In this document: positions 6,282 through 16,485 of the stretch, piece by piece
How the letters are laid out: every line of letters starts with the position of its first letter
Numbering within the stretch: position 1 is the first letter of the stretch
Source of the DNA: an uncultured Dehalococcoidia bacterium
GTDB lineage: Bacteria > Chloroflexota > Dehalococcoidia > Dehalococcoidales > UBA1222
DNA: 64,000 nt
Assembly: GCA_903844845.1 (NCBI GenBank)
Contig: CAIMVG010000004.1
Location: 30,840-94,839 of the forward strand
Reading direction: 5' to 3'
Program-made: the position numbers and the translations under genes
The notes under the pieces: model-generated
Databases searched by the model: none
Seen by the model: the letters and a program-made list of their open reading frames with translations, nothing else
Told to the model about the DNA's origin: nothing

Positions 6282-6634
6282 AAATTACAGAACCAATTAA
6301 TAATTTCGATCAGGTGAACGATGACAGAGAAGAAAATGAGGAGGGGAAACTTCGGTTTAACGTATCAGAGTCTAATTGAGTCTTTTGTCTTAAATAGTTG
6401 AAATAATATGACTGACAAATAACTAATATCGGGATATCTGTTCAAAAAAATGAGAATTTAGAAGATTCAACCAGTTTTAAGTAAAAACAATTAGCTGTTT
6501 CAAAATATCACGTCGCTTTATTTTCCCACCCCCATTTTCCTTGTTTATTTTGCCGTAGATATCCTTGACAGTTCCCCCCTCTATATTTTTATAATTTAAC
6601 TTTGATTTTATTGTTGGGGGAGTGGAGTATTCAG

Positions 6635-7597
6635 ATGGAAAACGATGCAAACTTGATCAGGACTTTAAGCGGGCATACCCAACGAGTCAGTTCAGTCCGC
6701 TTCTGCCCTAACGGGAAACATGCGGTCAGCGGATCGTGGGACAATACTTTGATCCTGTGGGATACAGAAACCGGAGAAGCAATCCGCACTTTCAAAGGCC
6801 ACCAGGACAAGGTCCACGCCATCGATGTGTCCGGCGACGGCAAATTCGCCGTCAGCGGGGCCGGAGATGGGAAAATAATGCTGTGGGACCTGGCAACTGG
6901 GGAAACTATCCGCACTTTTGACGGGTACCTGGCCTGGGTCTGGGCGCTGGGGCTAAGCCCGGACGGAAAATTTGCCTTGAGCGGGGCATTCAACAGGGTC
7001 ATGAATCTCTGGGACGTCGAAACCGGAAAACAAATCAGGACCTTCACAGGCCATTCCCGCGACGTATGGTCGGTAAAGTTCACCCCCGACGGCACGAAAG
7101 CCATAAGCGCTTCCGAAGATAACTCACTGATGCTGTGGGACGTTCAAACGGGCCAAAAGATCCGCACATTCAACGGCCATACGGCGAAAGTCACAAGCGT
7201 GAGTTTGACGGGCGACGGCAAACTGGCCCTCAGCGGGGCCTGGGACAACACCCTCATACTTTGGGACGTCGAAACAGGGAACGCCGTCCGCACCTTTAAA
7301 GCGCATTCCGACAAAGTTGAAGGTGTAGCGATGAACGATACCGATAAATTCGCAGTCAGCGCTTCTTGGGACAAAACGGTGAAATTGTGGAACCTTGAAA
7401 CAGGCGAAACCATGCGCACATTCAATGGTCATTCGGCGGAAGTAACCTCGGTGAGCCTGAGCGGCGATTTCAAACGTGTTCTCAGCGGCTCCGGGGACAA
7501 AACGTTGAACCTGTGGAACCTGGAACCCTTTGTCACCGGGATGCTTGCGGCTGCACCGCCTCAAGTTACAAACGAAACACCGGCTGCAGGGGCTTAA
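6635..7597 (+). CDS. Stand-alone WD40-repeat protein (seven repeats, one predicted beta-propeller)
   Basis: Seven roughly 42-aa units each contain (I/V/M)RTFxGH...SGSxDxTLxLWD. I prefer ATG 6635 (preceded by GGGGGAGTGGAG) to the track start at 6602. Confidence 0.9.
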   Translation: MENDANLIRTLSGHTQRVSSVRFCPNGKHAVSGSWDNTLILWDTETGEAIRTFKGHQDKVHAIDVSGDGKFAVSGAGDGKIMLWDLATGETIRTFDGYLAWVWALGLSPDGKFALSGAFNRVMNLWDVETGKQIRTFTGHSRDVWSVKFTPDGTKAISASEDNSLMLWDVQTGQKIRTFNGHTAKVTSVSLTGDGKLALSGAWDNTLILWDVETGNAVRTFKAHSDKVEGVAMNDTDKFAVSASWDKTVKLWNLETGETMRTFNGHSAEVTSVSLSGDFKRVLSGSGDKTLNLWNLEPFVTGMLAAAPPQVTNETPAAGA

Positions 7598-9917: not shown

Positions 9918-11180
9918 TTATTCCCTCGCCGCGATAGCAGGTTCCATGCGGCTTACCCTGTATGCCGGCCATAGAGCTGCCAAAACGACCGTCAGCAGTA
10001 TGAATGCCGTACCCGCGGCCACCATCCCGATGAATGACCCCCATCCGGGGAAGAGGAACGGCATGCCGAGCGACGATGTAATATAAGTCCGGAAGAGATA
10101 GATGACGAATGTTGCCAGCGTCACCCCGATTACAGCCCCGCTGAAAGCCAGTATCACCGCTTCCGCAAGGATCGATCGGAACACGTAAAACCTGGTCGCC
10201 CCGAGCGCCCTCAGTACAGCTATCTCCCTGCGCCGCTCATTCGCAGCCATAGAAAACACCAGCCCTATCAGCACAGCCGAAAGTATCCAGAAAACCACCA
10301 TGATGGCGACAAAGCCCCACAAAAGGCCTGTCATCTGGTGCCGGAACTGCCCGAACATATTGGGGCTTTCGAGAGGGACTACCCCGAGAACGCCTGAGAG
10401 TATATCGAGTGCAACCTTATGCCGGTCGGCCCCCGGAACTATCTTTACCATAACCTCGGAGATTTGTCCTGACGGAATCAACAGAGGTTGTACGGCAGTG
10501 GTAAGGGAAGACTTCGCCATCGCTTCGGCGGTCGCGGTTGACATGAAAAGTGTCTGGTCGATTCCCGTGCCTGTGGCCTCCAGGTTGCCAACAAGATCAG
10601 TATTGTAACCGTATAGTTTAATGGAAGTTTGTCCCGTCGGCACGAATATGTAACTTCCGCCGATGACCTCCCCGGTGTTCAGCGGACGGCCCAGTTCTTT
10701 TTCCAGCCATGGCTTGATGGTGAAATCTGTGGCAGGGTCGTACACCACCAGGAACATCTCGGAAACGCTGCAGCATGCCGCGCCGTAGAGGCTTTGAAGA
10801 TATATCTGGGGCGAAACCGCTTCCACTCCCGGTATGGCCGCGATTTCGGCAACCTTCGAATCGGGCATCCATACGTTGGTCGGTTTGCCCATCAAAAGGG
10901 CTGTTTCAACCTGTGTCTGGGCCCCTTCAGGGACAACCAGGATATCAGCCCCCAGCCTCTGGATGCCCACGTTGAGGCTGTTCTGGGCCCCGCTGATGAC
11001 CAGTGTCGTACCCAGCAGAAAGCTGGCAACCCCGAGCACGCACATGAAGATGACCATGCTCCTGAAAGCGCTGCCCCGGATATTGTTATAGGCCAGGCGA
11101 AATATGCTCATATAGCTCCTAAAACTCCTTGAATCAAAATTTTGATTCAATTTTGGTTTAGTCCCGGTTATTATAGGCAT
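9918..11180 (-). CDS. ABC transporter permease, FtsX/MacB-type
   Basis: 420 aa with an N-terminal TM, a large external domain and three C-terminal TMs (FtsX fold, ...RRREIAVLRALGATR...). It ends 4 nt upstream of the ATPase gene. Confidence 0.9.
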   Translation of the reverse strand: MPIITGTKPKLNQNFDSRSFRSYMSIFRLAYNNIRGSAFRSMVIFMCVLGVASFLLGTTLVISGAQNSLNVGIQRLGADILVVPEGAQTQVETALLMGKPTNVWMPDSKVAEIAAIPGVEAVSPQIYLQSLYGAACCSVSEMFLVVYDPATDFTIKPWLEKELGRPLNTGEVIGGSYIFVPTGQTSIKLYGYNTDLVGNLEATGTGIDQTLFMSTATAEAMAKSSLTTAVQPLLIPSGQISEVMVKIVPGADRHKVALDILSGVLGVVPLESPNMFGQFRHQMTGLLWGFVAIMVVFWILSAVLIGLVFSMAANERRREIAVLRALGATRFYVFRSILAEAVILAFSGAVIGVTLATFVIYLFRTYITSSLGMPFLFPGWGSFIGMVAAGTAFILLTVVLAALWPAYRVSRMEPAIAARE

Positions 11181-11882: not shown

Positions 11883-12030
11883 AAGGTCTTTCACCGAAGA
11901 AGAAATGATCCATCTCCAAAGCCCGGACCGGGACCCGATGGCGCTATTTCCAGGTTCCGGGAAAATACAATTCCGGTTTGGGATATAATCACATAAACAA
12001 GGATATTGCTGTCTTAAATGGGAGATTTTG

Positions 12031-12552
12031 ATGGAAGTTATCGTATATTCGAGCCCCACCTGACCCTACTGCCACATGGTGAAAGAGTTTCTTTCACGTA
12101 AAGGCATCAGCTTCACCGAGAAAGATGTTTCCGTTGACCAATCAGCTGCCCGGGAACTGGTGAACAGGACCAAACAAATGGGCGTGCCGGTCACCTTTAT
12201 CGACGGCGAGAGCGTTATTGGATTTAATCGTCCGCGCCTTGAGGAGATTTTGACTCAACATCAGTCCGGAAATCCCAATCCTTTTGGGGCTTCAGTAGCC
12301 GATGCACGTAAAATAGCGGCAGGACAAGGGCCAGATTCTGTCTCCGGAGCATATGTCGGCAAAATCAGCACAGGTTCAGCGGCGGAGAAATTGGGACTGA
12401 CGGTCGGAGATATCATTGTTGAGGTCAATTCACAAAACATTGTAGATGCGGCCGGCCTCGCACTTGCCTTATCTAAAATAAAGCCCGGAAACAGGCTTAA
12501 CATCGTCTTTCTCAGGGGTGATAAAAGATTGACCGCTGAAGGTGTTCTCTAA
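12031..12552 (+). CDS. Glutaredoxin-like / PDZ fusion protein with in-frame TGA (candidate selenocysteine) in a UPYC redox motif
   Basis: The track ORF starts at 12076, but ATG 12031 (GGGAG 6 nt upstream) opens the same frame: MEVIVYSSPT-TGA(12061)-PYCHMVKEFLSRKGISFTEKDV...GVPVTFIDGESVIGF, a Grx/NrdH fold. The C-terminal part GAYVGKISTGSAAEKLGLTVGDIIVEVN... is a PDZ domain. Confidence 0.65.
12079..12097 (+). promoter_or_regulatory. SECIS-like hairpin downstream of the in-frame TGA
   Basis: GTGAAAG-AGTTT-CTTTCAC is a 7-bp perfect stem (an eighth A-U pair is possible) with GU in the loop. It starts 15 nt after the TGA. Confidence 0.45.
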
Positions 12553-14528: not shown

Positions 14529-14605
14529 TGGTGGGCGATTGAAGATTCGAACTTCAGACCCCAGTCTTATCAGGACTGTGCTCTAACCAGCTGAGCTAAT
14601 CGCCC
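14529..14605 (-). tRNA. tRNA-Ile (anticodon GAU), CCA encoded
   Basis: The reverse complement GGGCGATTAGCTCAGCTGGTTAGAGCACAGTCCTGATAAGACTGGGGTCTGAAGTTCGAATCTTCAATCGCCCACCA folds into a full cloverleaf with all four stems perfect. Confidence 0.95.

Positions 14606-14987: not shown

Positions 14988-16485
<1,498 letters not shown>

Follow-up and report, generated by a model that had tools for sequence, protein, structure and literature searches.

A candidate selenocysteine-containing glutaredoxin fused to a PDZ domain in an uncultured Dehalococcoidia bacterium and its relatives in Chloroflexota

Lists of prokaryotic selenoprotein families with experimental verification include the UxxC glutaredoxin. 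Glutaredoxin 1 of Clostridium oremlandii (cGrx1; PDB 7C10/7C12) is a native selenoprotein, bears a U(C)PXC motif and has been proposed as the reductant of selenoprotein MsrA; glutaredoxins (Grx) with selenocysteine (Sec, U) have also been predicted in Geobacter, Moorella and Alkaliphilus. Another entry among the known selenoprotein families is the Trx7/PDZ (seleno)protein NF041199, which has a CxxU motif. The present study concerns a gene at positions 12031-12552 (+) of a 64,000-nucleotide stretch of DNA from an uncultured Dehalococcoidia bacterium (contig CAIMVG010000004.1); this whole stretch is termed the window. With a probability of about 0.9 the gene encodes a Sec-containing Grx fused to a PDZ domain. 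Sec-glutaredoxins are known already, and the combination of Grx with PDZ is best regarded as a new architecture among them, which forms a large, systematically mis-annotated family and is useful rather than surprising. A sequence-only reading of the window, which raised the candidate, had suggested that the fusion might be new. This stands for the fusion as such: no paper describing it was found for these organisms, and it is absent from the two selenoprotein review tables searched (the Grx entries of BSepDB lay outside the search). It does not stand for the gene as a single oddity, which belongs to a large natural family, nor for Sec-Grx itself, which is known and experimentally verified.

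Direct reading of the sequence gives 173 codons including one UGA, followed by a TAA stop at 12550-12552. Translation from the ATG at 12031 yields MEVIVYSSPT-UGA-PYCHMVKEFL and remains open to this stop. The proposed Shine-Dalgarno (SD) sequence, ATG, TGA and hairpin, and the gap of 15 nt between the last two, were all found exactly where they had been placed. The program-made list of open reading frames (ORFs) opens the gene at ATG 12076 and assigns it 158 amino acids (aa). The features of the locus are as follows.

12020-12024 (+), SD sequence GGGAG, 6-nt spacer and then ATG 12031-12033; sequence reading
12031-12552 (+), full coding sequence of the candidate Sec-Grx-PDZ protein; translation, with full-length 173-aa Cys homologues covering 100%
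12031-12270 (+), glutaredoxin domain, residues 1-80; Pfam PF00462, AlphaFold2 homologue model, PDB 7C10 match
12061-12063 (+), in-frame UGA, residue 11, first position of the U-P-Y-C redox motif (12061-12072)
12076-12078 (+), Met16 codon, the start in the ORF list and for gene callers, an internal residue of helix 1
12079-12097 (+), putative bacterial selenocysteine insertion sequence (SECIS) hairpin; folding, published constraints on bacterial SECIS, family conservation
12304-12543 (+), HtrA-type PDZ domain, residues 92-171; Pfam PDZ_2, PDZ_6 and PDZ, nearest structures the PDZ1 domains of DegQ/DegP/DegS

Scoring against Pfam and NCBIfam was done with U written as C. The Pfam Glutaredoxin model PF00462 is covered in full by residues 3-62 (69.1 bits, gathering cutoff 22.9), and PDZ_2 (PF13180) matches residues 92-170 (39.6 bits, cutoff 27). 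The structural description is based on an AlphaFold2 model of P0003, a Cys homologue 61% identical to the window protein. In this model a thioredoxin/glutaredoxin fold (residues 1-80) is followed by a less confident linker and a PDZ beta-sandwich (87-172), which together with the PDZ_2 score bears out the earlier assignment of the C-terminal half. The mean predicted local distance difference test score (pLDDT) is 88, with both domains confident and values above 90 over residues 1-70. Sequence and model place beta1 at residues 3-7, a helix at 12-23, and U11-P-Y-C14 at the start of helix 1; the cis-Pro loop V52-P53-V54 is invariant. From the fact that the protein opens directly with beta1, we infer a cytoplasmic location.

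The nearest solved relative of the N-terminal domain is cGrx1 (E = 1e-19, ~50% identity, root-mean-square deviation 0.8 Å), whose CPHC in the solved structure is aligned with the U-P-Y-C of the window protein. The two proteins have in common the fold, Sec as the first residue of U-P-x-C after beta1, ~50% identity over 74 residues, and a VGFDR motif (residues 63-67 of the window protein) near the C-terminal end of the Grx domain. As in known Sec-Grx genes, the putative SECIS lies inside the coding sequence, shortly downstream of the UGA. The known Sec-Grx proteins are single-domain proteins of ~75-85 residues, whereas the window protein adds a C-terminal HtrA-type PDZ domain, and structure comparison returned no solved chain in which Grx and PDZ domains occur together. 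They also differ in that Grx-PDZ is almost confined to Chloroflexota in our scans, with Sec as its majority and probably ancestral state. The PDZ half is closest, in sequence as well as in structure, to PDZ1 of the HtrA proteases DegQ, DegP and DegS. PDZ1 domains of these proteases bind C-terminal peptides of their clients. Unlike in the HtrA proteases, the PDZ domain of the window protein is without a protease domain and is joined to a redox domain.

Other families were considered as possible homes for the protein. The Trx7/PDZ family NF041199 resembles it in the fusion of a Sec-bearing thioredoxin-fold redox domain to PDZ, but the window protein has Glutaredoxin and UxxC in place of Thioredoxin_7 and CxxU. 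Membership was rejected, as the NF041199 model of 390 positions scores 27.3 bits against a cutoff of 300, on the PDZ part only. The YruB (TIGR02196) and NrdH-redoxin (TIGR02194) families consist of short CxxC redoxins that carry a GF(D/R) motif, and the Grx-domain sequence is as close to these as to classical Grx; they are single-domain and Cys-based, unlike Sec-type Grx-PDZ. NrdH-type proteins are reduced by thioredoxin reductase and not by glutathione. Among NCBIfam models YruB scores highest on the Grx domain, though membership was rejected at 80.3 bits (curated cutoff 88.55). The Uxx-star families were rejected by score (NF041212, 53.4 bits against 66; NF041211, 37.9 against 100; NF041114, 26.3 against 72) and are also unfit by position, with Sec three residues from the C-terminus in those proteins and at residue 11 of 173 in the window protein. 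No NCBIfam model is found at or above its cutoff on the Grx-PDZ protein, and annotation pipelines will for that reason go on shortening the gene.

Homologue DNA was collected from species-representative genomes and metagenomes, and 103 Grx-PDZ fusion loci were compared. The codon equivalent to 12061 is TGA in 78 of these and TGC or TGT in 25, which confirms the proposal that the TGA occupies the first-Cys position of a glutaredoxin. TGA forms make up 28 of the 31 fusion loci in named genomes, nearly all of them Chloroflexota/Dehalococcoidia metagenome-assembled genomes (MAGs). The 561 relatives retrieved by a protein search fall into two length classes, 170-173 aa and 155-158 aa. The Cys relatives of 170-173 aa start MxVIVYTSPTCPYCxMVKEFL and thus run through the position equivalent to Met 12076, whereas the 155-158-aa relatives, which are public gene calls, all start at MVKEFL, the outcome expected when a gene caller meets an in-frame TGA. 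Hundreds of public gene calls therefore appear to be wrong, since they begin at Met16, lose the active site and give 155-158 instead of 170-173 aa. The sole NCBI name recovered, "glutaredoxin domain-containing protein", belongs to such a shortened product of 155 aa.

The alignment further reveals that conservation extends upstream of the TGA. TGA is present at the matching codon in about 67-68 distinct orthologues, whose pairwise identity among TGA forms (termed Sec forms below) has a median of 58% and a minimum of 37%. Across 67 distinct TGA forms Tyr6 is invariant and Pro9 and Thr10 are nearly so, while synonymous choice upstream of the TGA is free (Tyr is TAT in 37 and TAC in 30, and all four Pro codons occur). 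An ATG stands at the equivalent start position in 57 of the 67, and a GGAG-like SD sequence is found at the matching position before it in nearly all Sec-form orthologues. The TGA is the sole disruption, with neither frameshift nor further stop, and its recurrence at one codon in orthologues down to 37% identity speaks against a pseudogene. The exact window product is encoded on 12 contigs from several independent metagenome assemblies, and the upstream reading is identical in all of them. The closest Grx-PDZ protein in the scanned GTDB species representatives, among which the species of the window is not included, is 63% identical. The conserved upstream coding, the depth of 37% identity and the 12 contigs with the exact product together lead us to reject that the TGA arose by sequencing error, that the gene is a pseudogene and that translation begins at Met16.

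The hairpin predicted downstream of the UGA is a perfect 7-bp inverted repeat, GTGAAAG (12079-12085) and CTTTCAC (12091-12097) around AGTTT (12086-12090). RNAfold adds an A-U pair, which gives an 8-bp stem with the apical loop GUU at 12087-12089, a minimum free energy (MFE) of -8.7 kcal/mol and a spacing of 23 nt between UGA and loop. The published consensus for bacterial SECIS elements, as given in a 2026 review (PMC13188914), comprises an apical loop of 3-9 nt on a stem of 4-16 bp, a G at loop position 1 or 2, mostly with G or U after it, a UGA-loop spacing of 16-37 nt, and an MFE of -7.5 kcal/mol or lower. The window hairpin lies within all four constraints, with its GUU (or AGUUU) loop, 7-8 bp stem, 23-nt spacing and -8.7 kcal/mol, and the description of the hairpin as SECIS-like is thereby upheld. 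When MVKEFLSRK was re-encoded synonymously with the codon usage of the window, 205 of 20000 versions (~1%) reached the stability of the native sequence. Relative to dinucleotide shuffles, folding of the 65 nt that begin at the UGA gives a z of -2.15.

The stem is constrained by the peptide V-K-E-F-L-S that it encodes, and the informative test is therefore the comparison of Sec with Cys forms at synonymous sites, for which 64 Sec forms and 22 Cys forms were used. Stem cells are paired in 91% of cases in the former and 73% in the latter. The loop G, which is the third base of codon 19, occurs in 64/64 of the Sec and 9/22 of the Cys forms (Fisher p = 6e-10), and Leu21 is CTT in 54/64 against 6/22 (Fisher p = 2e-6). 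Where residue 19 is Glu in Sec forms it is encoded by GAG in 60 of 60 cases, though the window as a whole uses GAA more often for Glu. Nine Sec loci carry the joint synonymous triple AAG, TTC and CTA, with which the helix is re-formed with one bulged A. One locus (L043) shows a compensatory change of a G-C to a U-A pair at the cost of replacing Ser by Asn. Where the peptide is the same, the hairpins of Sec forms are still more stable than those of Cys forms (p = 0.002). Three Cys-type (TGC) genes, L097 (743-802), L107 (1971-2030) and L112 (3031-3090), keep a perfect SECIS-like hairpin (GUGAAGGAGUUUCUUUCAC or similar) and are placed among Sec forms in the tree; these hairpins look like "fossil" SECIS elements left by a recent conversion of Sec to Cys.

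Several observations weigh against a Sec-containing Grx-PDZ protein with a dedicated SECIS. Strict covariation in the stem is sparse, with double changes at only 2 pairs, as expected of a stem that also codes for a conserved peptide (MVKEFLS). Many Cys forms retain a weaker hairpin (73% paired, about -6.5 kcal/mol), and some of the structure is therefore attributable to the encoded peptide itself. The hairpin tests count related sequences as independent and their p-values are optimistic for that reason, although the direction and size of the difference between Sec and Cys forms are clear. At a permissive threshold Rfam gave no SECIS-type match over 11950-12250, a search that is uninformative for bacterial SECIS elements either way. 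The mutual orientation of the Grx and PDZ domains is uncertain in the model, with a predicted template modelling score of 0.54. The gene has no conserved operon partner, and no neighbour in the window travels with it in other lineages. Finally, selA, selB, selD and tRNA-Sec were not found in the window, in ~10 kb past each of its ends (~84 kb in all), or in 1.49 Mb of related loci. ARAGORN detected only tRNA-Ile and tRNA-Val, and no tRNA-Sec, in the window and 44 related loci; Pfam scans of 30 window ORFs gave no SelA, SelB or SelD; and tblastn of the E. coli SelA, SelB and SelD against the 1.49 Mb of loci produced nothing beyond weak matches to GTPase domains.

The alternative that survives best, although it is unlikely, holds that the hairpin is a mere by-product of V-K-E-F-L-S and that any Sec insertion would be directed by another signal. 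The conservation of the encoded motif in Cys forms, where 73% of the stem cells are still paired, and the rarity of double-sided covariation are what would be expected in that case. Such a by-product does not account for the greater stability of Sec forms at identical peptide, for the ~1% of synonymous re-encodings that match the window, or for a Glu19 that is always GAG in Sec forms and keeps the loop G. Nor does it account for Leu21, which is CTT, or CTA with two compensating synonymous changes. A SECIS function of the hairpin is thus preferred.

It is less probable that the UGA is read through, but not as Sec, whether by a near-cognate or suppressor tRNA (Cys, Trp, Gly) or after a lineage-specific reassignment of TGA. 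The absence of the Sec machinery from the ~84 kb and the related loci would fit such decoding. The UGA is followed by C, which is a leaky termination context and also counts in its favour. On the other side, TGA behaves as a normal stop in the window, as had been noted for 2954, 20575 and 59873: it terminates 8 of the 50 ORFs of at least 150 aa, and ribosomal-protein and other conserved genes are intact under the standard code. A scan of the window for further TGAs in redox context (Cys, Ser, Thr or Gly beside TGA) found nothing convincing besides 12061. The hairpin with a G-U loop at SECIS distance is preserved specifically in TGA forms, and the nearest characterised relative has Sec at this very position. 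The class is also rich in selenoproteins; in BSepDB, Dehalococcoidia MAGs with 46 and 49 selenoprotein genes are among the ten richest bacteria.

Two related loci carry further candidate Sec codons and, like the selenoprotein-rich class, speak indirectly for a capacity to decode Sec. In L032 (Dehalococcoidaceae MAG CAYTZI010000020.1, minus strand) a rhodanese-related (seleno)protein (NF041203, 116.3 bits, cutoff 115) has TGA at the TYCI-U active-site position, ~8 kb from a Grx-PDZ gene at 10001-10510 that is itself a Cys form (TCGYC). A genome that can decode Sec would thus still carry the Cys version. In L123 (metagenome contig Ga0315277_10173880, plus strand) an in-frame TGA is present at 2161-2163, 1.4 kb downstream of a Sec-type Grx-PDZ gene. 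It lies in the N-terminal nickel-binding motif, RICGV-U-PGAH, of a VhuA/[NiFeSe]-like hydrogenase large-subunit N-terminus (NF041785, E = 3.5e-51 on a 132-aa fragment), with a hairpin bearing a CGUGUA loop ~19 nt downstream; the contig ends at 2367 and the remainder of the gene lies beyond it. The Sec of [NiFeSe] hydrogenases is normally found in the C-terminal motif.

Less probable again is that the 158-aa product from Met 12076 is real, a redox-dead Grx remnant with a PDZ domain, and that the sequence upstream is a leader or a pseudogenised active site. Gene callers and NCBI annotation do give products of 155-158 aa, and the ATG of Met16 is highly conserved. The Cys forms, however, conserve Met16 to the same degree as an internal residue. 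In orthologues down to 37% identity the ten codons before the TGA show protein-level conservation with synonymous change free; a conserved ATG and SD sequence stand ahead of them, and there are no frameshifts or extra stops. A product from 12076 would lose beta1, as had been pointed out, and the homologue model shows that the start of helix 1 would be lost as well. That an ordinary Cys-glutaredoxin gene was misread in sequencing or assembly, for which a single base change from TGC or TGT would suffice, is a negligible prospect, given the identical TGA on 12 contigs of independent metagenome assemblies from one population (including L001-L005 and L086) and in 67 distinct orthologous sequences.

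A mechanism can be proposed for the Sec-containing Grx-PDZ protein. Translation would start at ATG 12031, and SelB with Sec-tRNA(Sec) would act on the hairpin at 12079-12097 so that UGA 12061 is decoded as selenocysteine, which would give a cytoplasmic selenoprotein of 173 residues. The product would carry the U-P-Y-C active site on a Grx fold (1-80), connected by a linker of ~20 residues to the HtrA-type PDZ domain (~87-172). The selenolate of Sec11 may attack a client disulfide or a sulfenic/selenenic intermediate, and Cys14 would resolve the mixed selenenylsulfide; thioredoxin reductase or a low-molecular-weight thiol may serve as the upstream reductant that recycles the enzyme. The most likely role of the PDZ domain is to bind a C-terminal or beta-strand peptide of a client or partner subunit, which would hold the redox site near particular substrates.

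A PDZ-tethered glutaredoxin of this kind suggests a route for directing a highly reactive selenol to chosen clients. A wider proposal, which we advance tentatively and regard, taken as a whole, as less likely than not, is that Grx-PDZ is a distinct, almost all-Chloroflexota and ancestrally Sec-containing family in which the PDZ domain docks client C-termini (oxidised Msr, peroxidase-type enzymes, damaged proteins) onto the selenol site, and in which Sec-to-Cys replacements track more oxidising habitats. If the docking were true, the protein would act as a substrate-targeted selenoreductase, for which no precedent among glutaredoxins has been described. Current understanding is not overturned, as Sec-glutaredoxins and selenoprotein-rich Dehalococcoidia are already on record.

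Nearly all family members come from Chloroflexota MAGs (Dehalococcoidia, Dehalococcoidales, Anaerolineae and "Chloroflexia"). Two members occur in MAGs labelled otherwise, a Cys form in Phycisphaerae (L010, whose contig is the metagenome locus L104) and a Sec form in Nitrospinota (L038); their placement may reflect horizontal transfer or binning contamination. Evolution of the Sec/Cys column was followed by Fitch parsimony on a neighbour-joining tree of 90 distinct members, which is a rough tree. Parsimony places Sec at the root and requires at least nine Sec/Cys changes, with one clade of 14 Cys forms and eight scattered Cys forms, and Sec is thus probably the ancestral state of the family. 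With ~3:1 Sec to Cys, at least nine inferred switches and the putative "fossil" SECIS hairpins, the family provides a clean natural data set for Sec/Cys exchange, and its SECIS consensus, from a phylum that has been little studied, is compact and well defined.

Some neighbours recur in subsets of the loci: nitroreductase in 10 of 97, KatG in 8, FMN reductase in 6, Usp in 5 and MsrB in 5. They point, if weakly, to a function in oxidative stress. The KatG-like catalase-peroxidase (Pfam peroxidase, 734 aa) is encoded within ~0.3 kb downstream of Grx-PDZ in its eight loci (L017, L108, L118, L121, L124, L126, L134 and L143). Six of these eight Grx-PDZ genes are Cys forms, five of which belong to the large Cys clade, and this adjacency may link replacement by Cys to more oxidising habitats.

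The window also holds a cluster of ribosomal-protein and EF-G genes, the EF-G being 82-86% identical to proteins of "Dehalococcoidia bacterium" MAGs. A complete 16S rRNA gene is located at 14990-16485 (-), followed by tRNA-Ile(GAT) at 14529-14605. No 23S or 5S rRNA was found in the 64 kb, and the rRNA genes therefore appear to be unlinked. We also note a 331-aa WD40 beta-propeller protein at 6602-7597 (+) (Pfam WD40, 6 repeats, 239 bits), flanked on one side by a pair of ECF-type sigma factor and PD40-tricorn-like genes and on the other by YHS/YtkA genes. At the equivalent position the related locus L170 carries an insertion sequence (IS)-type integrase (HTH_38 and rve) at 765-1760. In its gene list, the 23-kb contig "cm4EVaK1" (ENA ERZ1426855) contains the shikimate-pathway operon of the window, from DAHP synthase to EPSP synthase, twice and in inverted orientation, which looks like a palindromic mis-assembly and not biology.

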